Shown: positions 52,001 to 64,000, counted from the stretch's first letter. The stretch is DNA of 64,000 nucleotides from Candidatus Latescibacterota bacterium (GCA_965222605.1 OZ244960.1:96001-160000); one strand, 5' to 3'. Notes: generated by a model from the letters alone, not told the origin. A program made the numbers and translations.

Positions 52001-53643
52001 GCGCCGGGACGGGGGCGATCAGGAATAATGCTTCGCCGGGGAAATGTGCGCACAAAACCCTGTAACCCGCGCATGCGATCGTCGGGGTCCAGCTTGTAAT
52101 CGGGCAAAAAATCTTCGGAATGTAACCCGAGGTCAAGCACGCTGGCAAGCATGCGTATCTGCCCGGTGAGATTTTTGAAATTCACATGTTCGGGCTTATC
52201 CAGTGGGGTATCTACTCTGAAACGCGCGTCGTTGACCGTAATGAGCGACAGCGCTGGCGTGCCCGCTTCCAAAACGACCTCGCCGTCTGTTTTCAAGATT
52301 TTCCCCGGAATATACATATCCCAGTTCATGCCGCCTTTTGGATTGATCCCATCGATGAGGGCATCGGCGGGATCCAGGTCAAAACGCTCGGCTATCGCCT
52401 CTGAATAATGCACAAGCGATTTGCCAAATGGCGTGAAGAAACGCTTGTAATAATAATTGCGCGTGCTGTTCCAAACTCCGATTTCATCTGTCTGACTCGT
52501 CAAATCGAGAGAAATCAACAGTGGAAGCTCGAGAGGTTCGGTCATCAGTGCGGCAAAATGCTTTTCCTTGCGCGAATGCCTGCTCAAAAAATCGCAAATG
52601 CCCCTGAAGCCGAGATGGTGCGCGGAAGATGCGAGAAACAAAAGCGTGTGTTTGGGCGGGTACTTGCTAAAATATTCAGCCAACTTCATCATGCCCACAA
52701 TCCCACACGCCATCTCTGCGCCCGGCGCGCGTGCAGGCACTACGGACATCGCATCGTAATACGTATTGATCACCACGGTTTTTTCGCTCAATACGGGATC
52801 GGTTCCGCGAATCCAGCCCAAAATATTCCGCGTCTCTTTCTTTTCCCAATCCATTCGCGCTTTCAACGCAACATTGACCTGATCCTTTTGCGCGAGCAGT
52901 GCTTTGAGTTTTTCGCCGCTTTTCTTATCGATCCAGAAACGCTCAACACTGTTGGGCACCTGCAAAAATTTGGTTTCTGCCTGTGCGGTAAACGTGGAAT
53001 CGGGTTCGATAAACACAATCTGCTGCGCGCCGAGCATGGCGGCATTGAGCCAGTGGTTCCACGAATTAAATTCCATCAACACCACGGCACCATCTAACTC
53101 GCGCCCATTAAACGCCGCGAAATCGCCAGTGCCGCCCCACAAGAGATGCCCCTGTACGCCACCTGTGGGCAAAGTGGTCGTCTTGACCAGATTGGGCCAC
53201 AAGCCGTGAATGGCAAAAATCTCGCCTGTGTCTTCCACCGTCAGGGTTCCACCATAGTCTATGGGCACGGCCACGTCATACGTTTCGGCTTCTACGTCTT
53301 CCATGCCAAAACGCCGAAACTCAGAAATGATAAAATCCGCGGTTTTTTCATGGCCCGCATAACCCACCACGCGCGATTCGTGTTGCGTGAACTGATCCAT
53401 CAACGTGCGAATCCCATCTTCGCGCACAGCATCCAAAACCCGTGTGCCCACTTCTTCTGCACGCGGAACGGGCACGGGAGGAACTGCGCCGGGCATTTCC
53501 AATCCCAACAAAGCAGCTATATGGGGATTTACGCGATAGGGGCCGGCAATCAGGAGTGCCGTAACAAAAATCCCCAAACCGATGAGGCTCCATGCGATGA
53601 GCTTGTAATTTTTATCATCCATAGCGATGTACCCAATGTCCAC
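49096..53643 (-). CDS. M28 peptidase-like / FtsX-like permease fusion protein
   Basis: N-terminal PA+M28-like fold, central TMs, NMKKRKMRT.LT, VYERFREIGIYSAVGL.P FtsX motif; start could be 53622. Confidence 0.8.
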   Translation of the reverse strand: MDIGYIAMDDKNYKLIAWSLIGLGIFVTALLIAGPYRVNPHIAALLGLEMPGAVPPVPVPRAEEVGTRVLDAVREDGIRTLMDQFTQHESRVVGYAGHEKTADFIISEFRRFGMEDVEAETYDVAVPIDYGGTLTVEDTGEIFAIHGLWPNLVKTTTLPTGGVQGHLLWGGTGDFAAFNGRELDGAVVLMEFNSWNHWLNAAMLGAQQIVFIEPDSTFTAQAETKFLQVPNSVERFWIDKKSGEKLKALLAQKDQVNVALKARMDWEKKETRNILGWIRGTDPVLSEKTVVINTYYDAMSVVPARAPGAEMACGIVGMMKLAEYFSKYPPKHTLLFLASSAHHLGFRGICDFLSRHSRKEKHFAALMTEPLELPLLISLDLTSQTDEIGVWNSTRNYYYKRFFTPFGKSLVHYSEAIAERFDLDPADALIDGINPKGGMNWDMYIPGKILKTDGEVVLEAGTPALSLITVNDARFRVDTPLDKPEHVNFKNLTGQIRMLASVLDLGLHSEDFLPDYKLDPDDRMRGLQGFVRTFPRRSIIPDRPRPGAVASLRMGVDKSIKGVRRIYYDIADEDGEFYMPGIAERRVDVKAFYMDPESGEITYAPNHGRQARIYRGEFNMDWWISKRTRILFPCIATDFYDTVDPRYLTKLSSISVLGPGNTAPQEYGYAIGFGPEEPVGTIFTTPGERVKIVMRLGGRSLDIGVRYMLLNSKSAESVEVARGDGFQTLQHGSFIYSSFQAAKDMWTLNEARMRELAKYSIENQRMTNLHAQAKYHLDLAEESMQDKKWDLFVKHTRAGMGLESRAYPDVKATQNDVIRGVIFFMILVIPCAFFVERLLFTFSDIRLQIGGFGVVFMVIWIVLSQVHPAFDLSNPFVILLAFVILALAIFVIAIVSGRFHDNIRQLRTEEVLLHDTDVGRISASVAAFQLGIANMKKRKMRTGLTFATLVLLTFTVLSFTSIKTTLDFYQIPLDTGGKYPGLLIRSQFWGPLEDTAYDYARINFFDQGEIAPRSWYVTRDLKKTPIETPEKRTKVLGILGLAVNEPAVTRIDTLLSHGRWFEEGELACILPGKMAGLLEVGPEDVGKKSVRLFGKQLKVVGVIDAEKMRNHPDLDGEMLSPADFKLTDDEIVSRLTQQETREKQGLEQPQLENMPFEHIDPDDIIIIPYNILREVGSPLQSVAIRLHEGVDVEEQVKEYVSRLSVVVYAGIPMADGKIQVSIYSSMGWGPLPGLANLFVPILVAALIVLNTMMGSVYERFREIGIYSAVGLAPVHISFLFIAEACVYAVLGTVSGYLLGQGVIKILLWQGLLQGLNVNYSALSTVISSVLVMVVVLVSSLYPARQASLMAVPDVTRRWKLPDPDGDHWHFEFPFTVGGKDVFGLSVFLVDYFESHMGESMGAFYTDGARFGSVEAATGAGYTIDTKIWLAPYDLGVSQQVHFEAVPMGEHNIFSMTLTIDRLSGDAASWRRVNQGFMNALRKQFLIWRTVDPANRAQYTEKGRVLLSAPKAVVNA

Positions 53644-55606
53644 GTTCTGAGAACCAAATCATGTCAATACCCACTGACAAAGCCACACCGAGAATATATC
53701 CGACCAGCAAACCGATGAACAGGGGCCTGGATTTGCGATAAATCGTTGGGCCCCCCACTTTTATGATGACAAACTTAATCAACCACGCCAGAAAAGTTGT
53801 AAAACTGGTGCGACGGACCAGATAAGAACCCGAAATCGCCAGCCCCACGGGATGCAGAGGCCACCACGCAAAGCGATAGCGCATATAGATCAACCCAGCC
53901 ATCAGCAGACCGCCAATGCCAAAAAATGCCGCTTGTTCGGGATGTTCCTCATAAAATGGTGGCTTGTCGGGGTCTTTAATCACGTTAACCGTCCCCTGGA
54001 AGTGGCGTTCGGCTGCTCGCGTAATCTCCCAACTGTTGAAATTATAAGCCCCCTGATCGTACCCCAACCACACGGTGAACAGCATATTGAACAGCAAACT
54101 GACCATAAACACCAGCCCAATAGCACCCATCAGCCGCCGCCGCTGATTGCCGGGAACGCCCTCGGAGACGCGCCCTGCATGGGCAAGCGCGGGCAAAAAC
54201 AACCCCTTAAAATGCCCGGTAATCAAACCCGAATAGCGGTAAGCGACATGGGTGGCAAGCGGGATATTGCGCCGTCCAAAAAACGGTGCAACCATACTCC
54301 AGGCACCTATGGGCGTATTGGTAAATGGCATGCCAGTATCGGCGAGGATCTTCGCCATACCCGTATAGACAAAAACCACGGAGAGAAGGAGTAAAAATCC
54401 TTGCAATGGATCGAAATTCATCTGCGTCAGCCAGATAAACAAATACGCCATACTGCACAGCAAACCGATGCAAGCAGCGCGATAAGACATCAATTCCTCG
54501 GAGTCATCCACCGTTGGATCTCTTCCAAGTGCCTTCATCAACACATCGCGCAAATGTCTTCTCGCTACCCAGAATGTCGAACCCACAAAAACAATAAATG
54601 CCCCTGCAATCTGCCAGTAATAAACCCCCGTGCGATAATAAGGCGTGGTGGCTCTATAGCCCCACTTGCTGAGCTGACCGCCCTCAAAGATGAACAACAA
54701 ATCAAAAAACCAGATTGAAAACAGAACATCCAGGCTGGCAAAATAAGAAAAAAGAATGGTAAAAATGCCAAAGTATCCCCTGATAGGCGGCATTTGCCAA
54801 TCAATCCAGTACCAGCGCGACCGGTAAATGGGAAAACGCGGAAAGCCCGGCACAAAGTAATTGATACAATTCCAGGCCAGCACACCAAAAGCAATGGCAA
54901 ATCCGATCCAGAATAAGCGATTGCGCGTAAACTCGGGCAACCAACCCTCGCCATCGCCCGGTTCAGAAACAATATCGATCAACGGCGCCATCGCGGGAAA
55001 AACCAGGCGTTCGTTTTGCACCCACTGTTTTCTCAAAACCGTAGCGACACAGGCCAGCATCAAAAAAGCCGCCGCCACAACCGTCGTCCACCAGAACAAG
55101 GGCAATATCCACACGTCCCATGGAATCTCTGCACCGCTCGGCAAGCCTTCGTAAAACCACGCAACGGCATTGCCCTCGTGGCTCGGCAAGAGCCAATTGG
55201 GCAAAAGCGGATGCAAATGCTCAGCCCACTGATTTTCTTCCGTAGCAAAATAATAAGGTGCCGTGATATAGCCGATCAAATAACCCGTCAGTCCAAAACA
55301 CGGCAGTGCCGCGCCCACAAGGCCCATCGCCAGAATCGCATGCCATTCACCTGGTGAGAGCGCCCAGCCGGTCGCCCTGGCAATAATGGCGAGTCCGATC
55401 ATCAAAATCATCAACACGATCAGCATGGCCATTGGGATATGGCTATACGTCATCAGCGGAGCGTGCAAGACGTAGCGCACAAAAATAGCCAGCAGATCGA
55501 GGGCGACGACGAGAAATAGCCCCAATCCCACAGCGCGCAATGTTACCGCGGGTTGTGAACTCGCATCATCTGCTTCTGTCTGAATATTTTGTGTATCAAG
55601 GGCCAT
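53615..55606 (-). CDS. DUF6785/DUF6784-type membrane protein (putative transporter)
   Basis: LRKQWVQNERLVFP, FSIWFF, WWPLHPVG, PLFIGL motifs. Confidence 0.8.
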   Translation of the reverse strand: MALDTQNIQTEADDASSQPAVTLRAVGLGLFLVVALDLLAIFVRYVLHAPLMTYSHIPMAMLIVLMILMIGLAIIARATGWALSPGEWHAILAMGLVGAALPCFGLTGYLIGYITAPYYFATEENQWAEHLHPLLPNWLLPSHEGNAVAWFYEGLPSGAEIPWDVWILPLFWWTTVVAAAFLMLACVATVLRKQWVQNERLVFPAMAPLIDIVSEPGDGEGWLPEFTRNRLFWIGFAIAFGVLAWNCINYFVPGFPRFPIYRSRWYWIDWQMPPIRGYFGIFTILFSYFASLDVLFSIWFFDLLFIFEGGQLSKWGYRATTPYYRTGVYYWQIAGAFIVFVGSTFWVARRHLRDVLMKALGRDPTVDDSEELMSYRAACIGLLCSMAYLFIWLTQMNFDPLQGFLLLLSVVFVYTGMAKILADTGMPFTNTPIGAWSMVAPFFGRRNIPLATHVAYRYSGLITGHFKGLFLPALAHAGRVSEGVPGNQRRRLMGAIGLVFMVSLLFNMLFTVWLGYDQGAYNFNSWEITRAAERHFQGTVNVIKDPDKPPFYEEHPEQAAFFGIGGLLMAGLIYMRYRFAWWPLHPVGLAISGSYLVRRTSFTTFLAWLIKFVIIKVGGPTIYRKSRPLFIGLLVGYILGVALSVGIDMIWFSERGHWVHRYG

Positions 55607-55785: not shown

Positions 55786-55861
<76 letters not shown>

Positions 55862-55915: not shown

Positions 55916-55958
55916 AAAAGAGGGTGTGAACACTGAAAGTTCACGCCCTCTTTGTTTT
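55916..55958. terminator. Bidirectional intrinsic terminator
   Basis: AAAAGAGGGTGTGAAC-loop-GTTCACGCCCTCTTTGTTTT between tRNA and convergent gene. Confidence 0.8.
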
Positions 55959-55983: not shown

Positions 55984-56772
55984 CTATAAACTTTGAGCAA
56001 CCCGAAACCCCACATAAAGGCTCCCGGCAAAGGTCCTGTGTTGGTCGCGAACAGCCGAGCGCTGGAAAAATCCTTCCAGGTACCATGCACCGCCGCGCAC
56101 CACGCGCGCAGTAGAGTCGCCGACCTCCCACGCAGATCCGTCATTGGGTGCGCCCACATATCTATTATTATAGCAATCCTGAGTCCATTCCCACACGTTG
56201 CCGTGCATATCGTAAAGCCCCCAACCATTGGCCTCGAACGATCCCACAGGTGCTGACATCTCATTATCCCACTGACTGCCGCACCCATTGCAATTGGCGC
56301 GGTTGCGACCAAGATTATTTCCCCAGCTATACCTCGTCACTGTTCCCGCGCGCGCCGCATACTCCCACTCTGCCTCGCTCGGCAAACGATAGTTTTTCCC
56401 TGTCTGCTCCGATAGCCATTCCGTGTACGCCACCGCATCATCCCATGTGATATTAATCACGGGACGCCGCCCCCGGCCAAAACCTCTGTCGTCTGCTCGC
56501 TCGCGCCCCGTCGCATCCGTGAAGAGATCGTACTCCTCAAACATCACTTCATATTTCGACAGCGCGAACGACTCAATCGTCACCTCGTGTACTGGTCTCT
56601 CGGCGTTAGTGCAACCTCTCCCCGACACACAGCCCATCTTAAAACGCCCCGCAGGAATCACCACCATCTCTGGCGGCTTAAAAGAAGCCACACTCTCCTG
56701 TGAAACTTGAGCGGATGTACCCGTAAATCCCAATAAGATTACAACGAAAACACTCCTGATAACTCTCCTCAT
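55984..56772 (-). CDS. Secreted FGE-sulfatase (SUMF1) domain protein
   Basis: Signal peptide, F.MG, RLPSEAEWEYAARAG, GLYDMHGNVWEW, GFRV. Confidence 0.92.
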   Translation of the reverse strand: MRRVIRSVFVVILLGFTGTSAQVSQESVASFKPPEMVVIPAGRFKMGCVSGRGCTNAERPVHEVTIESFALSKYEVMFEEYDLFTDATGRERADDRGFGRGRRPVINITWDDAVAYTEWLSEQTGKNYRLPSEAEWEYAARAGTVTRYSWGNNLGRNRANCNGCGSQWDNEMSAPVGSFEANGWGLYDMHGNVWEWTQDCYNNRYVGAPNDGSAWEVGDSTARVVRGGAWYLEGFFQRSAVRDQHRTFAGSLYVGFRVAQSL

Positions 56773-56856: not shown

Positions 56857-57585
56857 TCACCTTCCAATGGTCACATTGACCAGGGCACCGGGTCTGACAT
56901 GCTTTCCCGCATTCAAAAAAAGACCTGTTACTTTGCACGTCCCATTTTCTGGATCAATAACAGGACTGATCCCGACAATGCGCCCGGGCAGCGCGCGCTT
57001 TCCGCCGGCGGTTGGCACGGCAGACAGCGGCATATTCTTATGGATCGCGTTCAGCCTGTCCTCGGGCACAAACAGATGCACCTGAAGATTCATGGGGTCG
57101 ATGACCCGCGCGACCGCGGTGTAAGCCAGTACCCAGTCGCCAGGCTTTACATTGACCTCGACCACCATCCCGTCCTGGGGTGCAATGATTGCGGTTCTGT
57201 CCAGTTCCATGCGCGCGGTGACCCAGTTGCAGTGCGCGACCTCGGCATCGAAGCGGACATTTTCAAGCTGCTGGTCACTGATCAGCTTCTTATCGTGCAA
57301 CATTTCCAATCGCGCTTGCAGGGTCTGAGCCTTCTTCAGTGCAATTCGGGCCGCAGCTTCCTTCACACGCAGATCTCGGCGGGTTAATACCATGAGGGTA
57401 TCCCCTTTGACCACCCGGTCTCCCACCTGGAAGTTGACCTGCTGCATCCGCGCGTTCATCCCGGCATAGACAGTCGCCGATCGCGCAGATACTAAAGGTG
57501 CCCTCAATATCAGTTCTTGTGCATTGACCCTTGCGGCAATGAGCATGAAGAACAGACCGCATAGAAACATCGCGTTGTATATCAT
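56857..57585 (-). CDS. Membrane fusion protein (RND periplasmic adaptor/HlyD-like)
   Basis: Signal-like N-terminus, VGDRVVKGD, coiled coil, IIAPQDGMV, ISPVID, RPGA. Confidence 0.85.
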   Translation of the reverse strand: MIYNAMFLCGLFFMLIAARVNAQELILRAPLVSARSATVYAGMNARMQQVNFQVGDRVVKGDTLMVLTRRDLRVKEAAARIALKKAQTLQARLEMLHDKKLISDQQLENVRFDAEVAHCNWVTARMELDRTAIIAPQDGMVVEVNVKPGDWVLAYTAVARVIDPMNLQVHLFVPEDRLNAIHKNMPLSAVPTAGGKRALPGRIVGISPVIDPENGTCKVTGLFLNAGKHVRPGALVNVTIGR

Positions 57586-58775
57586 AGTTGGTCTCCTATT
57601 AGACGGATACGTAACACACCCCTGAATCGCACGTTTTTGCGTTTCAGGGCCTCGATCTCTTTCTGCTTTTCCGCCAGTTCTCTCTCTATTTGCCTCAGTT
57701 TCAGGTAATGAACGGGCGGATGCGCCATTTTTAAGTCCTCTATTTTTTCATAAAGCCCTTGCTCTACCCCTGATAAATCTTTTATGCGTTGTGAGAGGCC
57801 TCTAAAAATGGGCTGGAACCGCAAAATCTCCTCTTTCTGGGCAAATTTGAATTCAAACGCCCGGGTGGTGAAACTGACAGCACCGCCCTGGCGGTCTTCT
57901 TCCTCAACTTCAAAAGAAGCATCTGCCTCGAGCAGTCCAGATACAAAACTGTTTTTCGGGATCCGCTTTATCAGTTCCCGATAGGTCTCGTCTTTCAACC
58001 GGATCGTCTGTATTCTCACGGGGCGATCAGTTTCCTCCACGCGCACCTTATCCGGCAAAATGGCACCGTGTTCTCCGCAAGTCAGAACCCGCCCATCGAA
58101 AAAGATCCAGAACCAGGCGGGCCTGGCATCGAGGATCAGAGCTTTTCCACGCACCCTTTCGCGCGTGTGTCGCCATTGTCCTTCAAAATTCAAATAGGTT
58201 TCTGTATTGGCTCCCCGATAATCTGAGTATGCGGCCGAAGGCGTAGCCATCAGGTATCTAAATGATCGCCAGATACCGCCCATGTTCGATATGGGCATGA
58301 ACGCCAGGAGCAGTATTACAACCACGGCCAATACAGTACCCTCCCCCATGAGGGATCCGGTTTTGACCCTGTACCTCGCACTGCCGGGGAAAACGCAAAC
58401 CGCGGGATGGGGATAAAACAAGGGCACGCCGCTTTTGGTCGCACAATCGGCGATTAGATGGCTCATATAGCCTAATAGTATGGCTGCATAACACGCAGAT
58501 TGATAGGCGAGTAAAGGCAGAGTGACAACCGATAGGGCGAGCATACAGAGCAGCGAATGGGTAATTGAGCGGTGCCCCCATCGCCGCTCGATCGGGATGG
58601 AAGCAAGGGGCATCATCCGACCAATAGAACTTCTCGGCGAATCCACATCTGGAAGCAGGCTCCCTATGATCGCGCATGCGACCGCGGGAAGATTGCGGTG
58701 AATGGACATGGAAAAGAGCGAGAAGGAACTCGCCACAGTGAGCAGCCCAAATGCAATGTGTGTCGGTGCAGTCAT
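57582..58775 (-). CDS. YdjM-like membrane metal-dependent hydrolase with long C-terminal extension
   Basis: TH, GSLLPDVD, GHRSITHS, GYMSHLIAD..TKSGVPL; ATGA overlaps on both sides. Confidence 0.85.
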   Translation of the reverse strand: MTAPTHIAFGLLTVASSFSLFSMSIHRNLPAVACAIIGSLLPDVDSPRSSIGRMMPLASIPIERRWGHRSITHSLLCMLALSVVTLPLLAYQSACYAAILLGYMSHLIADCATKSGVPLFYPHPAVCVFPGSARYRVKTGSLMGEGTVLAVVVILLLAFMPISNMGGIWRSFRYLMATPSAAYSDYRGANTETYLNFEGQWRHTRERVRGKALILDARPAWFWIFFDGRVLTCGEHGAILPDKVRVEETDRPVRIQTIRLKDETYRELIKRIPKNSFVSGLLEADASFEVEEEDRQGGAVSFTTRAFEFKFAQKEEILRFQPIFRGLSQRIKDLSGVEQGLYEKIEDLKMAHPPVHYLKLRQIERELAEKQKEIEALKRKNVRFRGVLRIRLIGDQL

Positions 58776-60304
58776 CGTTTGAACCTGTACATAAAGAATC
58801 GAATGCCTACCAGAAGCGCGCTGCCGATACCAGCCAGCACATAGCCTTCCATACTCCCGATGCCGCGCATGAAGAAGCGCGCTGCGACCACGGCCAGCAG
58901 AAGCAGCACCACGGCGAACGTAAGATCGATCTGGTTTCGCGCGCCCGTGTGCAACACATCTCGCACCACGGATCGCGTCACGGCCGGTTCTTTGCGAAGC
59001 CGTTCCACAATCTCAATGATGGCGCGCGGATTCCCAGCACTCTGTTGCAAGATGTTCGTCTCCGTCATTCGGTAGTCTTCTATATTGGCGCCAGTAGTAC
59101 ACTGGCGGATGAGTTTTTTCGCGTCCGCGGTAGATAGGTACTCTATTTCTACGCGGTCGAACTTCCAGAAGTGTTTCTCGTGTGGCTTCCTGACTTCTGG
59201 CAGGGCCGCGATAATGGTAAACTTGCGGTTGAGTTTATCGATCAATCGCCCGACGGAGGCGGTCATATCCGCCAGATCATCAACGATTAACACGAACTCG
59301 TTTTCCTCCACTGAGCCGAGCACCATATCTGTCCAGCCCTGAATGGTCGTGCGGGTGTGTTGCTTTTTGATCCTTTCAAATTTGTCCGGACCAGCCGGAC
59401 ATAGCCTTCCTATTTTATGAAGCTCCTTCGCAATATTTATCAGGGCCTCTTTCGCCGGCGTCAGCGTCTTCACCTTGAGCACATTTTCTGCGTTGAGCAA
59501 CGCGAGCAAATGACTTTTGCCCACGCCGATCGGGCCGATCAATAGTGTGTCAATGCCCTTGCTCAAGTTGTCTTTGAGCTGGCGCAATTCCTCATCGCGG
59601 CCTACGGTCTGCTGCATCCCGATGCGTGTGTGCTTTCTCGGCCACGCGAAGAATCTGTAATTGCGATTCTTCTGGCGCGACCACCACCGCGACCACCGCG
59701 ACCTGCGATCGATGCGATCAACAGAACGCCGCTTTTGCTCGGCACTTACAGAAATGTAGATGGACGACGTCTCAAGGGACGCATGCCCCATCAGGTCTTT
59801 GATGCGCTCGACCGGCACATCCCGATCTGCCAGGTCAGTGCCGAAGGTGTGCCTGAGCATGTGTGGATGGACGTGGCGGATCCCCGCGCGCTGGGCGTAG
59901 GTCTTCATGGACGCCCACACGGTCTTGCGGCTGAGACGCTGCCCATTGCGGAGGTTGCAAAAGACATATTCGGAATCTGAAAAATGACGGGACTCCAGCC
60001 ACTCGCGGAGGACGTCCTGCACCTCGAGGTTCATCGGTACAACCCGCTCTTTGCCGCGCTTATCCGTAAAGCGAAGGCTCGGTGTGCCCGTTGACCAGTC
60101 AATGTTGTCAATCGTGAGCGAACACGCTTCGGATACGCGCAGACCACACATCGAGAGAACGGCAATCAGCGCGCGATCGCGCGGGTTCATGCGTACGGAT
60201 TTGAGCGCTTCAAGCTCGTCTTGCGCGAGAGCTTTAGGGAGCTTCTGTGATGGGACTTTACGGGATGGTACTGCTGGACGGGTTGTGGGTGACTGGTGAA
60301 CCAT
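58772..60304 (-). CDS. Tyrosine recombinase catalytic domain fused to P-loop ATPase and two C-terminal TM helices
   Basis: GLRVSE, K, HMLRH, LMGH, IY catalytic set; VGRDEE, GPIGVGKS, LIVDD, GNPR; hydrophobic C-terminus. Confidence 0.9.
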   Translation of the reverse strand: MVHQSPTTRPAVPSRKVPSQKLPKALAQDELEALKSVRMNPRDRALIAVLSMCGLRVSEACSLTIDNIDWSTGTPSLRFTDKRGKERVVPMNLEVQDVLREWLESRHFSDSEYVFCNLRNGQRLSRKTVWASMKTYAQRAGIRHVHPHMLRHTFGTDLADRDVPVERIKDLMGHASLETSSIYISVSAEQKRRSVDRIDRRSRWSRWWSRQKNRNYRFFAWPRKHTRIGMQQTVGRDEELRQLKDNLSKGIDTLLIGPIGVGKSHLLALLNAENVLKVKTLTPAKEALINIAKELHKIGRLCPAGPDKFERIKKQHTRTTIQGWTDMVLGSVEENEFVLIVDDLADMTASVGRLIDKLNRKFTIIAALPEVRKPHEKHFWKFDRVEIEYLSTADAKKLIRQCTTGANIEDYRMTETNILQQSAGNPRAIIEIVERLRKEPAVTRSVVRDVLHTGARNQIDLTFAVVLLLLAVVAARFFMRGIGSMEGYVLAGIGSALLVGIRFFMYRFKR

Positions 60305-60363
60305 GAGAAACGCCTCCTGTATGGGTTGGAATTGAAAATTTTGATCTCGTGCCCTTCATATAG

Positions 60364-60379
60364 TGCAAGAACCGTGCCA
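60364..60379 (-). promoter_or_regulatory. Sigma54 -24/-12 promoter of the recombinase operon
   Basis: Minus strand TGGCACG-GTTC-TTGCA, full consensus; AGGAGG RBS downstream. Confidence 0.85.
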
Positions 60380-60454
60380 AAATTTTCAAAAATGCCGTAA
60401 CTGCTTGCAGGAGAGCGTGTTTTTAAAAAATGCCGGAAAAATGGCCTGTGGGGA

Positions 60455-60537
60455 ACTGTGTCAAATGACACAGTAGGTGTTTCAAATGAAACAGTAAGTG
60501 TGTCATATGACACAGTTGGGACTATAATGAAACAGGG
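60455..60537. promoter_or_regulatory. Four 21-bp-phased palindromic sites (probable bEBP enhancer)
   Basis: ACTGTGTCAAATGACACAGT, GGTGTTTCAAATGAAACAGT, AGTGTGTCATATGACACAGT, GGGACTATAATGAAACAGGG starting at 60455, 60476, 60497, 60518. Confidence 0.75.
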
Positions 60538-60559
60538 GGATTACAGAGGGAAATCACAC

Positions 60560-60590
60560 AAAAAATGCCCTGAAGAATACAGGGCATTTT
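60560..60590 (-). terminator. Intrinsic terminator insulating the recombinase promoter
   Basis: AAAATGCCCTG-loop-CAGGGCATTTT with U-run on the minus strand. Confidence 0.75.
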
Positions 60591-60663
60591 GAAAGGTATT
60601 TGGAGCATACCATACAACGGGCTGTCATCATCGGTCCTGCGGACATTGTTTGCGTTTTGCCAT

Positions 60664-63171
60664 TCAATTTCCCCTCCCGATCTGTGCTCTGGTCGCCACG
60701 GCTTTTACGGCTTCTATGCCCAGGCGGTCTTCGAGTTGTTTCAAGTACAAACTGCGCGGAGAGACCTTCAGCCCGTGTGATTCCCAATATCCATCTTCGC
60801 GCCTGTACCAGCCGTCTCGTTTCTCGCCGATGCAGCCAATGGCGTAATTCTGAGATGTTGGGGGTTTTTGCACGATAAAGCTCTCTGCTTCGCAGTTCCA
60901 CAATACTTTTTGCGCGCCCGCCCAACCGTGGCCAGTGCCCGAACCTTGCCGATCCTGAACATTGATGGCATTACCGTTCACGGTCACATTGTCAAATAGG
61001 GTGCAAACAGACCACCGGTGATGGGGGCCTGAATCATTATGCGCGATATCCGCCGTGCAATCCAAAAACACATTTGGCCCCGGTACGCGTGCGTGTAGCA
61101 CATAATCGTGACGCCCTCGCCGGGTATAACACCGTTGCACGAGGGACAATTGCCCGTGGATGGGAAATGAATATCGCCGTCCCCCGGTGATCTCTGATAC
61201 GGGGTCGAGACACTGGCTATCCTGCACGGTCATCCATTTCGCGTAACGGCCAATGGTCACACATGCATATCCAAAGTGTACCGAGGTGATATCGCGCGCC
61301 CACGCATTCTGCACGCGTGAAAATACGACAAAGTTCCAGGCGTGATCTTCATCGATAAACTCATCCTCCCTACTTTCATCTTTTTCGCTGACATCAAACT
61401 CCGATACGCCGTGCAAGTTCTCAATGCCGACCTGTTCAATGCGCCCGAGATATTCGTATTTGTAAACCCACCCACCGCCGTATTCTCGTTCAAATGCATT
61501 GCCCATGGGCGCGTCGATTGTTATTCGATTACCATCTATGGCAGTTATGGTGCGGTCAAAGCGAAAGTCGTAAGTGCCCGGTTCCCACTGCCGAACGTCG
61601 GGATGTGACATCTCAATGCGATCCATCCCTATTGCCGCAATCCACTGTGCCGTACTGGGTCGATGCACGATGATGTCATCGCCAACTGCAAAACCCGAAG
61701 CATCTGCGATGGCGAATGTTCTTGTGCCTACGGGGACATAATCATCTACAATGGCCTGTCGCGTTCCCCCTACCTCTCGGGGGCTATCTTCGCCTTCAAA
61801 CTCAATTAATGTGCGCTGTTCTGTTCCCGTTGCAATCAATACCGTGCCGTTTTCACCTTCGCCTTCACCGCGCAGTACAACGCCACTTGCCCGAATCTGC
61901 AGGGTTCCGCCAATGCGATATTTTCCGCGCTTGAGTAACAAGGTCCCCCGAAATCCATTGGCGTCCAGTGCGCGTGCAGATACGTCGTCGATTGCCGCTT
62001 GTAATCGCGCTGTGTCGTCTCCTTCGGCCTGTGGCTGTACCGTCATTGCCACTGGCACATCTGGCAGAGCCACACCACCACCCATATAGCCACAGTGTGA
62101 AAAGTCTGGAATGATATTGCCCTTTTCGTCTGGTACATAGACCAGTCGCCCGTCAGGTCCCGGATATACCAGTTTACTGTTCTGAGGTACGTAAGATATC
62201 GAACTGCTCCGCGTTTGGATAAAATCTGCAACTTGCGCCCAAATTGGGATGGGATATATGGAGGGGTCGCGTGAGGCGATAATATCCCGAGGAATTGGCA
62301 CGCGAATCCGGGTTGTTCCCGCCTCAATCGTCTGTGTCAATAAAATCTGCGTTTCGGTTCCCACCACAATGTTTAATGGTTGTGTGGTGGCGTTTTCCAA
62401 TGTGATGGGTATGTACCACTGCGTGCCGCCAGATCCGAATCCAGCAGCGAAGGTGAGAAAATCACCAAAACCGATTTGTCCGTCAGAATCGAGGTCGCAG
62501 AGGGGATCATATCCCGCATCGGCCTGTGTTGCACCGAATTTCTGAACAAAGAGGATAAAATCACTAAAACCAACGGCTCCGTTGCCATCAAAATCGAGAT
62601 GGTCAATGGAATTTATTTCCTGTACTGGCGCGTCAACTTGCCAGAAAAAGGTCTGATCGACGGTTGCGATATGATCGATGAACAGGCGCGCGTTTGAATT
62701 TTGACTGGTTTCTGTTCTAAATGTGATGTATCGCCTGTTGTAATCGGGTTCTCTGCCCCAGATATCGTGGGGTTTTGCCAGTTCTACAACGGCAAGTTGC
62801 CAGCCCTGAGGCGGTGTTTGTCCCTCCCAGATTGTATATATGGCTTCCCTACCACCGCCCAGAGGGTGGTTGCGAACCTTGATTTTGAGGTCCCTCAGGC
62901 CATTGCCCTCTACTTTCCACCAGAAGCTCAAGCTGTGTCTTTGGGAGATGTCCTGCCCCGTGCTGAAAAAATCGTAGGTAAAGAATCCCGTTTGACCTGC
63001 TGGCAGAGAAGCCGCGATGGCAAAGCGACCCTCCTGGGCATCTTTGGATAACTGGACATTGTTGGACCAACCGGAGAGATTATCGCAATAGGTCAGCGTT
63101 TGCACCGGATCGCTAGCAGAGCAAGGACAGGCCCACAAAAATAGAATTGTGCAGGTGATAATTGGTCGCAT
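60664..63171 (-). CDS. Secreted modular protein: CBM-like domain, dockerin/EF-hand-like repeat, pectin-lyase-fold beta-helix
   Basis: Signal peptide; DFDGNGAVGFSDF / DLDSDGQIGFGDF; IPDFSHCGY.GG, DDTARLQAAID, SGVVLRGEG, PRSLY..QL. Confidence 0.8.
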   Translation of the reverse strand: MRPIITCTILFLWACPCSASDPVQTLTYCDNLSGWSNNVQLSKDAQEGRFAIAASLPAGQTGFFTYDFFSTGQDISQRHSLSFWWKVEGNGLRDLKIKVRNHPLGGGREAIYTIWEGQTPPQGWQLAVVELAKPHDIWGREPDYNRRYITFRTETSQNSNARLFIDHIATVDQTFFWQVDAPVQEINSIDHLDFDGNGAVGFSDFILFVQKFGATQADAGYDPLCDLDSDGQIGFGDFLTFAAGFGSGGTQWYIPITLENATTQPLNIVVGTETQILLTQTIEAGTTRIRVPIPRDIIASRDPSIYPIPIWAQVADFIQTRSSSISYVPQNSKLVYPGPDGRLVYVPDEKGNIIPDFSHCGYMGGGVALPDVPVAMTVQPQAEGDDTARLQAAIDDVSARALDANGFRGTLLLKRGKYRIGGTLQIRASGVVLRGEGEGENGTVLIATGTEQRTLIEFEGEDSPREVGGTRQAIVDDYVPVGTRTFAIADASGFAVGDDIIVHRPSTAQWIAAIGMDRIEMSHPDVRQWEPGTYDFRFDRTITAIDGNRITIDAPMGNAFEREYGGGWVYKYEYLGRIEQVGIENLHGVSEFDVSEKDESREDEFIDEDHAWNFVVFSRVQNAWARDITSVHFGYACVTIGRYAKWMTVQDSQCLDPVSEITGGRRYSFPIHGQLSLVQRCYTRRGRHDYVLHARVPGPNVFLDCTADIAHNDSGPHHRWSVCTLFDNVTVNGNAINVQDRQGSGTGHGWAGAQKVLWNCEAESFIVQKPPTSQNYAIGCIGEKRDGWYRREDGYWESHGLKVSPRSLYLKQLEDRLGIEAVKAVATRAQIGRGN

Positions 63172-63209
63172 TGTAATTTTTCCTGACCGCTGACCGCTTG
63201 TTTCTATTC

Positions 63210-64000
63210 TCACGCACAGACAACCTCAAAGGCCGTTATATTGCGGGTATCCTTGCTGAACTCTACCCCGATCAAATATATCGGCTGATCCAGACCCCGA
63301 TATTTGTCCGCGTATCCCTTTTCCTGCAACTGCGCCATCGCCGCGCCTTCAGACGCCAGTTCCACCACCTTGAACTCGAACAGGTAGATGTTATCGTTGA
63401 AGTACACAGCCATATCCACACGCCCATGGCTGCTGTCCTCTACGGTGATGTCAAGCCCCAGTGCTGCGAAATAGGAATAGAACACACTGGCATAGTAGCC
63501 TTCAAAACTGGCGATGTCGTTGTTGGTGTACCATTCGTAGGGGATACTGGCAAAAAAGGCGTGGAATAAGGTCTCGAGACCGGCAAAGTCATTGGCTTTT
63601 AGCAGGCGGTAGAGTTGGAGGCTGTTCGCTATCTGGCCGGACGGGTCTTTCACTAGGTAGCGCAATAGGCTCTCGTTGAGACTTTGACGCACTTCCCGAT
63701 TGGGATAACTTAGACGGTACAGGGACTTGCCGCCGAGGTTCTCCTCACCGGTAATGGTCAGATACCCGGTTTGAAACAACAGAGCCTCGGTCGCAATTTC
63801 ATCCACATCGAAAGTCGATAGCAAATCGCTACTGCCGATCATCTCATCGAGTTTCAAGGAACTGACACGGCGTTGAAACAGGGTCTCAATGAGGAAGGTG
63901 GGGGTACCCGTCTCGAACCAATAGGCTTCGAAGCTATGCCTTCGGAACAGCAGGAGGATATCGAAGGGGTTATAGACCTTCTCCTCGCCCCGCCAGCTAT
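63210..64000 (-). CDS. AAA-ATPase-like / PD-(D/E)XK nuclease protein (5'-truncated by window edge)
   Basis: YNPFDIL, YWFETGTP, LLFQTGYLTI, EGYY, GRVD...FEFK, Q..EKGYA. Confidence 0.88.
   Translation of the reverse strand, partial: SWRGEEKVYNPFDILLLFRRHSFEAYWFETGTPTFLIETLFQRRVSSLKLDEMIGSSDLLSTFDVDEIATEALLFQTGYLTITGEENLGGKSLYRLSYPNREVRQSLNESLLRYLVKDPSGQIANSLQLYRLLKANDFAGLETLFHAFFASIPYEWYTNNDIASFEGYYASVFYSYFAALGLDITVEDSSHGRVDMAVYFNDNIYLFEFKVVELASEGAAMAQLQEKGYADKYRGLDQPIYLIGVEFSKDTRNITAFEVVCA

Follow-up and report, generated by a model that had tools for sequence, protein, structure and literature searches.

Tyrosine recombinases are soluble enzymes that act on paired DNA sites. In the FtsK-XerCD system, a membrane-anchored ATPase controls such a recombinase. 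Here we describe a locus of Candidatus Latescibacterota bacterium in which a tyrosine recombinase catalytic domain, an ATPase, and a membrane anchor form one polypeptide. This polypeptide is the product of the first of three genes, termed A, B, and C, that lie in a 64,000-nucleotide stretch of DNA (GCA_965222605.1 OZ244960.1:96001-160000), hereafter called the window. Since the locus has no att repeat and A has no core-binding domain, it is not an island integrase but a conserved three-gene inner-membrane module. Two groups of described proteins bear on it. In TcpM, MobK, and MpsA, a tyrosine recombinase domain serves a plasmid or island role other than integration, according to the passages of PMC9299015 that treat these proteins. 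Profile comparisons link the YdjM family, to which B belongs, with clostridial alpha-toxin phospholipase C, HET-C, and S1/P1 nucleases; this family forms the toxin tip of some RHS proteins and is usually followed by a beta-sandwich domain, and in the part of PMC8557891 that covers the family we found no activity described for any YdjM protein. The three genes are as follows.

58772-60304, minus strand: gene A, 510 residues, fusion of recombinase, ATPase, and membrane anchor
57582-58775, minus strand: gene B, 397 residues, YdjM-type membrane hydrolase
56857-57585, minus strand: gene C, 242 residues, periplasmic adaptor similar to membrane-fusion proteins (MFP-like)

ATGA overlaps at both junctions, A/B and B/C, support the predicted translational coupling of the three genes that a preliminary description of the locus had already read from the DNA. 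The same description had seen in A an intact recombinase joined to a Walker-type NTPase with a GNP motif and two C-terminal hydrophobic helices. Domain searches, motifs, and a structural model agree on this architecture, which is laid out below.

60251-60304, minus strand: codons 1-18 of A (MVHQSPTTRPAVPSRKVP), a CPBP-derived leader, disordered in the model
59741-60229, minus strand: residues 26-188, tyrosine recombinase catalytic domain (PF00589 Phage_integrase, E 1.5e-40)
58955-59608, minus strand: residues 233-450, P-loop ATPase with Walker A (GPIGVGKS), Walker B, and GNP motifs, then a helical/winged-helix part
58787-58942, minus strand: residues 455-506, C-terminal hydrophobic hairpin (membrane anchor), by hydropathy and model

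The active site of the recombinase consists of R56, K82, H148-x-x-R151, H174, and Y183, and the ATPase motifs are G257..G262-K263 (Walker A), D342-D343 (Walker B), and G424-N425-P426. Hydropathy places the hydrophobic stretches of the anchor at residues 455-485 and 487-506, and the model places its helices at 462-482 and 485-509. The AlphaFold2 model was built on 32 relatives and has a mean predicted local distance difference test score (pLDDT) of 80, with values of 80-94 across residues 30-180 of the recombinase domain. It shows a disordered leader (residues 1-21), the recombinase, a low-confidence basic linker, an alpha/beta ATPase with helical domains, and the two terminal helices. A consists of two cytoplasmic enzyme domains placed on a C-terminal membrane hairpin. 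In many homologues (e.g., P0010 and P0073), the ATPase is interrupted by an acidic, low-complexity stretch of about 50-140 residues; the corresponding site in A lies near residues 303-308 (window about 59380-59398), where one X3 contig has 194 extra letters.

The first half of this protein resembles Xer recombinases in catalytic-domain sequence, in fold, and in its complete R-K-H-R-H-Y set. The nearest solved structures by sequence are XerA (4a8e, E 9e-33) and XerD (1a0p, E 2e-21), and Foldseek matches the modelled domain to XerH (5jjv, E 2.8e-11) and XerA (5hxy, E 3.8e-11). Unlike these enzymes, A has no core-binding domain: no core- or arm-binding Pfam family matches it (PF02899 and PF13495 were without match), and all 32 aligned relatives start at the catalytic domain. 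Among NCBIfam profiles, the first part of A is nearest to XerA, XerC, and XerD but far under their cut-offs (157 vs 220, 136 vs 335, and 132 vs 330, respectively). It is also fused to an ATPase and an anchor, and no dif-like site was seen. With FimB and FimE, A shares a recombinase that is essentially a catalytic domain only and that matches nearly the whole 200-residue profile. However, it scores 62 against a cut-off of 221, has about 320 extra residues, and is not accompanied by an invertible segment with flanking inverted repeats.

The sequence profile of the ATPase finds only marginal matches in the PDB. By structure, Foldseek relates the domain to AAA+ proteins such as NB-ARC domains of NRC receptors, RFC subunits, and MuB. 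AAA_16 is a sub-threshold match at residues 234-349 (25 bits, cut-off 32.6), and the Thermus homologue exceeds the thresholds of both AAA_16 (39.1) and nSTAND1 (28.0 vs cut-off 27.1). A and FtsK-XerCD are alike in their logic, in that an anchor, an ATPase, and a tyrosine recombinase act together, a likeness for which we claim no homology. In A, by contrast, the parts are one polypeptide in the opposite order, and the ATPase is AAA+/STAND-like and not FtsK/HerA-like.

The fusion is not unique to this assembly. A search of a 5.8-billion-protein collection returned 234 relatives of A at E<=0.001 among 8000 scored candidates; full-length matches span 90% to 26% identity, and their source labels name metagenome-assembled genomes of Gemmatimonadetes, Latescibacteria, Proteobacteria, and Bacteroidetes. 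The fusion occurs at 84-90% identity in 6 further genomes of the genus, and also in other families and on plasmids of cultured Bacteroidota. The open reading frame (ORF) is covered by contigs of 4 runs from 4 studies, and the likely source run is identical to it. In the alignment of 32 relatives, no variation is seen at R56, H148, R151, H174, Y183, P426, or the glycines and lysine of Walker A. In a wider set, R, H, R, H, and Y are retained in all 30 fused rows and K82 in 26 of them, and the Walker A lysine persists in 45 of 46 rows. For 9 sequences of the genus, median ratios of nonsynonymous to synonymous substitution (dN/dS) are low in the recombinase (0.14), the ATPase (0.13), and the anchor (codons 451-510; 0.10) and higher in the leader (codons 1-24; 0.76) and the linker (0.63). 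By these data, the recombinase catalytic set is intact, as the preliminary description had it, and under purifying selection where it is kept.

B matches PF04307 YdjM at residues 1-161 (95.2 bits, cut-off 29), and about 235 more residues follow: residues 190-325 form a beta-rich domain and 327-379 a coiled-coil hairpin, and one more strand comes last. The YdjM metal ligands H6, D43, D45, H68, H73, H106, and D110 are invariant in 24 of 24 rows, and all seven are also retained in 8 of 8 plasmid rows. The model of B (pLDDT 86) gave nothing significant in a Foldseek search of the PDB (best E 0.044); weak Zn_dep_PLPC matches occur in B and in the Thermus homologue. As judged from sequence, B belongs with the metal-dependent membrane enzymes of YdjM type, within the zinc phospholipase C/P1-nuclease-like superfamily. 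In having all metal ligands and the accompanying beta-rich domain, it is like other YdjM proteins, including the RHS toxin tips, as these are described in part of PMC8557891; the added coiled-coil hairpin and the obligate ATPase neighbour set it apart.

C is a short, signal-anchored, MFP-like adaptor with HlyD_3/HlyD_D23 matches and 126 bits to TIGR01730 RND_mfp (cut-off 94.9). It had been taken for an orphan MFP gene; it is instead the third member of a conserved A-B-C triad. A natural B-C fusion exists (P0142, 638 residues), which argues that the YdjM and MFP-like proteins act together. We had also considered the C-terminal part of B as MFP-like; since hhalign found no similarity between the B profile and C, this idea was dropped and is left as no more than a topological impression. 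The module recalls tripartite efflux and type I secretion systems in that an MFP-like gene stands in the operon, and a TolC/OEP-like gene in the Thermus version. It differs from them in that the operon contains no RND, ABC, or MFS pump gene (the neighbours of C are the YdjM gene and an FGE-sulfatase gene), C is short (242 residues), and the ATPase is not of the ABC type.

We then turned to the distribution of the module. An A-related match (E<=1e-30) was found in 15 of 20 other genomes of the genus, and 15 loci were inspected. These loci contain ATPase and YdjM genes whether or not the recombinase domain or C is present as well. Some loci keep the full A-B-C order at the same DUF6785/tRNA-Phe/FGE position. 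In two genomes (G012 and G013), a clean in-frame deletion has removed the recombinase domain at this position, one (G007) has a copy with C mostly deleted, and one (G014) has a decayed copy. At a paralogous locus of the genus, an ATPase-only gene (about 75% identity) precedes a YdjM paralogue (about 65%), and C is mostly absent. Homologues that keep both the fusion and its synteny with hydrolase and MFP genes also occur farther away. In other families of the phylum, the A-B-C order is found in 8 of 10 loci at 36-58% identity; of the remaining two, one ends at a contig end and the other has the ATPase alone. Of 168 genomes of the phylum, 22 contain the ATPase part; they represent 5 of 49 genera, and two of these genomes (G150 and G152) have several matches each.

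A tblastn search of plasmids with the ATPase-anchor part returned 12 records, all typed as non-mobilizable. In each of the 8 that we examined, a YdjM-type "metal-dependent hydrolase" gene adjoins the ATPase gene on the same strand. The fused recombinase form is found on plasmids of Bacteroidota (Flavobacterium pA5BP1, Spirosoma pTS, Flammeovirga, and Haliscomenobacter) and the ATPase-only form on plasmids of Allochromatium, Methylobacter, Nitrosococcus, and Thermus. In the regions viewed around the module, 4 of the 8 (Spirosoma, Methylobacter, Nitrosococcus, and Thermus) have toxin-antitoxin or restriction-modification genes. The ATPase-YdjM pair is the invariant core of the module; at least four phyla have it, on plasmids and in variable regions of the chromosome. 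A tblastn search of phage records gave no match, and none of 597 pattern matches in viral contigs was confirmed. A scan of genome contigs with the full-length alignment mostly recovered ordinary Xer genes through the recombinase motifs, so that its 80 loci were left out, and a scan of metagenome contigs with the ATPase alignment was dominated by Walker A matches and yielded 1 locus, which was irrelevant.

A third component recurs, and it is of an envelope-adaptor type each time: MFP-like, TolC-like, or coiled-coil. In this phylum it is MFP-like. The Thermus plasmid encodes an OEP/TolC-like protein of 225 residues (46.5 bits), and Flavobacterium has a sub-threshold OEP match (20.3 bits, cut-off 22). 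On two gammaproteobacterial plasmids, a coiled-coil protein of 217-239 residues without a Pfam family is encoded directly upstream of the ATPase-only gene (L134:5255-5974 and L136:4334-4987; 47% identity). This protein may be the third component there. The 239-residue version from Allochromatium was also considered as a split-off recombinase, an idea that was rejected since hhalign found no similarity to the A profile.

A tree of the ATPase-anchor part was computed from 46 hand-chosen rows, and the presence of the recombinase requires at least 7 changes on it, 3 of which are forced by well-supported branches; the tree is unrooted, so that gain and loss are not distinguishable at deep nodes. 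Recombinase-less forms are nested among fused ones, and the gammaproteobacterial and Thermus forms fall outside the fused clade. Three deletions of the recombinase domain have different borders, which marks these losses as independent. The recombinase domain sits on one large clade and was lost several times by in-frame deletion. It is dispensable for the module, as the ATPase-YdjM pair persists without it. In one distant copy (L125; G150:C48, 3-2126 and 4488-6005), the segment with H-x-x-R is missing from the recombinase domain, and 2.3 kb upstream stands a gene for a sigma54 activator with a propeller-type sensor; a HigBA-like pair separates the two.

In this genus, A is preceded by a conserved upstream region with the following elements.

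60365-60379, minus strand: sigma54-type -24/-12 element, TTGGCACGGTTCTTGCA (TGGCACGGTTCTTGC), 61-75 nucleotides before the ATG of A
60457-60514, minus strand: three 16-nucleotide palindromes TGTNTCAWWTGANACA at 60457, 60478, and 60499, with 21-nucleotide spacing and 7-2-7 layout
60230-60640, minus strand: promoter cassette, with three copies in the genome, containing terminator-like hairpin, palindromes, conserved spacer, sigma54 element, ribosome-binding site, and first codons

The loose sigma54 pattern is not enriched in the window (13 found vs 14.8 expected), and the full consensus TGGCAC-N5-TTGC[AT] has only 37 occurrences in the 6.34-Mb genome. The element is kept at the same position in relatives, and the genome has one rpoN match and 18 matches that span nearly the whole Sigma54_activat profile. 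With a consensus element, a conserved position, and the matching regulators, the sigma54 promoter assigned in the preliminary description looks genuine. The palindrome occurs at only three places in the genome, and the repeated stretch of about 230-350 nucleotides does so too; the terminator-like hairpin is one piece with the repeat at the first locus and a separate 55-nucleotide piece at the second. The other two cassettes drive nearly identical genes for 212-residue Rce1-like/CPBP intramembrane proteases (L033:6344-6982, minus strand, corresponding to G000:C1 at about 164.3-165.0 kb, and L034:7441-8079, plus strand, at about 5.470 Mb of G000:C1). Since the same cassette heads these protease genes, the 7-2-7 palindromes are best read as activator sites, and they probably bind an enhancer-binding protein; for the same reasons, layout and CPBP context, we rejected them as recombination sites.

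This comparison also revised the reading of the start of A. The near-direct start at the catalytic domain, with no core- or arm-binding domain, was confirmed, but the first 18 codons are not part of the recombinase gene; they are the 5' end of a CPBP protease gene. The CPBP products begin MVHQSLVTRPAVPSR and A begins MVHQSPTTRPAVPSR, with the first 15 or so residues in common. One relative (G017, L020) has a complete CPBP gene between cassette and A, and so a CPBP-A-B-C operon; in a second copy in its genome, where the CPBP gene is left truncated, A starts by itself with MTSRSS. At 60248/60251, between codon 18 of A and the recombinase domain, contigs of X10 and X5, from two other studies, have 604 extra letters. 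Together with the CPBP-headed relative, this insert indicates that the layout in the window arose by a deletion of about 600 nucleotides that fused the CPBP leader to A. In relatives, ATPase-only paralogues follow the same cassette, and good sigma54-like elements precede two distant copies (L031 and L127); none were seen on the Bacteroidota plasmids. The cassette is a tidy case of a promoter and first codons spread among unrelated membrane genes.

What might such a module do? Our best guess, to which we assign a probability of about 0.4, is a conflict or maintenance function on mobile elements, either exclusion of or defence against incoming DNA or killing, which is sigma54-switched in this genus. 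The patchy, plasmid-borne, multi-copy distribution and the toxin-antitoxin, restriction-modification, and PD-(D/E)XK neighbours favour a role of this kind. A and B would act as one complex in the membrane, with B switched through the binding or hydrolysis of ATP by A, and the third partner (MFP-like here, TolC-like or coiled-coil elsewhere) would tie the complex to the outer envelope. The recombinase domain could cut or rejoin DNA that meets the complex at the membrane. The module would then place a phospholipase- or nuclease-like enzyme under an ATP switch, joined in one clade by DNA cleavage, and the enhancer cassette held in common with the CPBP proteases would switch it on in this genus. 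Conflict systems of the STAND/AAA_16 type (NLR-like, Avs, nSTAND) are among the closest described systems. A and its homologues have weak AAA_16, NB-ARC, nSTAND1/5/6, and ATPase_2 matches, and A shares with these systems the NRC NB-ARC matches in Foldseek, a GxP motif, an N-terminal enzymatic domain, and a patchy, plasmid-borne distribution.

Several observations weigh against a conflict or maintenance function. A has a membrane hairpin in place of the C-terminal sensor repeat domain typical of STAND proteins. The only match in PADLOC-DB 2.0 is a weak one of mad8 to A (16.5 bits, E 0.0011), with nothing for B or C. Effector swapping was not seen: N-terminal variation is recombinase or nothing, and no other effector domains appeared in the range of 157-501 residues that was searched. 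Tight sigma54 control is unusual for defence genes, and toxin-antitoxin or restriction-modification genes are frequent neighbours on plasmids in any case. Hydropathy gives no clear topology for the C-terminal domain of B, and this domain has no profile similarity to C. Finally, the unrooted ATPase tree leaves deep gains and losses of the recombinase indistinguishable, and some recombinase-less metagenomic rows are possibly truncated gene calls.

Whichever function applies, an intact recombinase site that is tied to an ATPase and the membrane and travels with a YdjM enzyme points to an unstudied coupling of DNA chemistry to the envelope, and the large, function-less YdjM family gains its first conserved partner. 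The preliminary description had not recognised the architecture from any described system, and this stands as far as literature searches reach: full-text searches found neither the architecture nor the gene pair described, and supplements may list such architectures. The main text of PMC8138268, a classification of tyrosine recombinases, makes no mention of ATPase, transmembrane, or fused forms; its supplement may list them. The component families are known, and their combination, conservation, and plasmid carriage appear to be undescribed. The module is directly testable, since it is also carried by small plasmids of harmless strains in culture (Flavobacterium, Spirosoma, Haliscomenobacter, Allochromatium, and Thermus).

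A tentative alternative to the conflict or maintenance function is that ATPase, YdjM enzyme, and adaptor make up an unrecognised plasmid-borne, envelope-spanning machine. In the fused clade this machine would process DNA at the inner membrane: it would carry plasmid DNA into or out of cells with neither a known relaxase nor a type IV secretion system, or else intercept incoming DNA. We regard this as possible though doubtful. If true, this would be the first case of a membrane-anchored tyrosine recombinase that serves for something other than integration, inversion, or resolution.

A rival proposal is a DNA transfer or secretion machine in which the recombinase acts as relaxase, the membrane ATPase couples or energises the process, and YdjM and the MFP- or TolC-like partner form the envelope route, so that plasmids typed as non-mobilizable would have their own means of transfer. 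That all 12 plasmid matches lack a known relaxase fits this proposal, as do the envelope-spanning types of the partner proteins and the large share that the module takes of small plasmids (14.4 kb and 19.7 kb). Tyrosine-recombinase-like relaxases do exist in TcpM, MobK, and MpsA (as treated in part of PMC9299015), a possible parallel to A; the same passages of that paper set these proteins apart from A in that no ATPase or membrane anchor is described there. A recombinase domain that could serve as relaxase is missing from many chromosomal forms and from the plasmid forms of Gammaproteobacteria and Thermus, and no pilus, type IV secretion system, or oriT-like feature was seen. AAA+/STAND-like ATPases act as switches and not as DNA pumps. 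We consider a transfer machine unlikely.

By analogy with FtsK-XerD, A could instead carry out site-specific recombination (multimer resolution, inversion, or excision) under the control of its ATPase and anchor. A complete catalytic set under purifying selection and the closeness to XerA (E 9e-33) and XerD (E 2e-21) speak for such an enzyme. On the Bacteroidota plasmids, A is the sole annotated recombinase in the regions viewed (the whole record for the 14.4-kb Flavobacterium plasmid), and in several plasmids the gene is near Rep or ParA genes. However, A has no core-binding domain. Between 55500 and 64000, we found short imperfect repeats but no convincing inverted or direct pair, and no pair with a 6-8 nucleotide spacer near the gene; sites could lie elsewhere. 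The 7-2-7 palindromes also precede CPBP genes without a recombinase, and there is no att site. Rearrangements were checked in contigs: across 4 runs, none contains an inversion joint at the locus, but rare forms are lost from contigs and would not show. A 756-nucleotide joint inside A in one X3 contig was not relied on, as only 30 letters support one side. The obligate YdjM partner and the repeated loss of the recombinase with retention of the rest are left unexplained, and we judge this proposal as improbable as the transfer machine.

Less probable again is an envelope-stress or export system without a DNA role, in which a sigma54-induced ATPase, a YdjM lipid hydrolase, and an adaptor would remodel or export membrane material together with the CPBP proteases and the recombinase would be a passenger. 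It draws on the sigma54 cassette common to the two CPBP protease genes, the full CPBP gene that heads the operon in one relative, the membrane or periplasmic nature of all three products, and the many lineages in which the module works without the recombinase domain. A recombinase dN/dS of 0.14 and an active site invariant across phyla are nevertheless unexpected for a passenger; the CPBP link is seen only within this genus, and plasmid carriage is unexplained. An assembly or annotation artefact, whether chimera or lost stop codon, has a negligible probability and is ruled out by the same fusion in 6 genomes of the genus (84-90%), in other families, and on cultured Bacteroidota plasmids, and by contigs of 4 independent studies.

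The surroundings of the module contain the following features.

53615-55606, minus strand: DUF6785/DUF6784 membrane protein gene
55786-55861, plus strand: tRNA-Phe(GAA), which borders the variable region
55917-55953: bidirectional 15-pair hairpin between tRNA-Phe and the end of the FGE-sulfatase gene
55984-56772, minus strand: FGE-sulfatase domain gene, downstream of C
60664-63213, minus strand: gene for an 849-residue secreted protein, upstream of A, with weak EF-hand/dockerin-like matches only
63210-64000: gene for a 517-residue AAA-ATPase_like + PDDEXK_9 protein, cut by the window end

The preliminary description had proposed a signal-activated, membrane-tethered system for DNA rearrangement or transfer, or else the relic of an unusual integrative element. 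Its interpretation is partly supported as a whole, but the relic found no support. No second copy (14 nucleotides or more) of the 3' part of tRNA-Phe was found near the locus, and other short matches are scattered genome-wide; A has no core- or arm-binding domain, and the family is intact here and kept across phyla. The region beside tRNA-Phe does vary among relatives. One genome (G008) has DUF6785, tRNA-Phe, and FGE, then a PD-(D/E)XK gene fragment and no A-B-C, and 4 other module-less genomes have the orthologous DUF6785 locus without A-B-C and without the FGE gene. Upstream of A, other secreted proteins take the place of the 849-residue protein in relatives, which marks this flank as a variable region.

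The hairpin at 55917-55953 is the likely transcription end for both sides. The FGE-sulfatase gene may be co-transcribed with A-B-C; it is retained in one relative that has no A-B-C. The DUF6785/DUF6784 family is strongly expanded, with 24-33 matches per genome in five relatives of the genus. About 0.8 kb past the window end (L033:2817-3392, minus strand), a 191-residue Phage_integrase ORF that is likewise a catalytic domain only lies directly upstream of the AAA-ATPase_like/PDDEXK_9 gene. The two form a second pairing of a recombinase beside an ATPase, and the AAA-ATPase_like/PDDEXK_9 gene is multi-copy around these loci.

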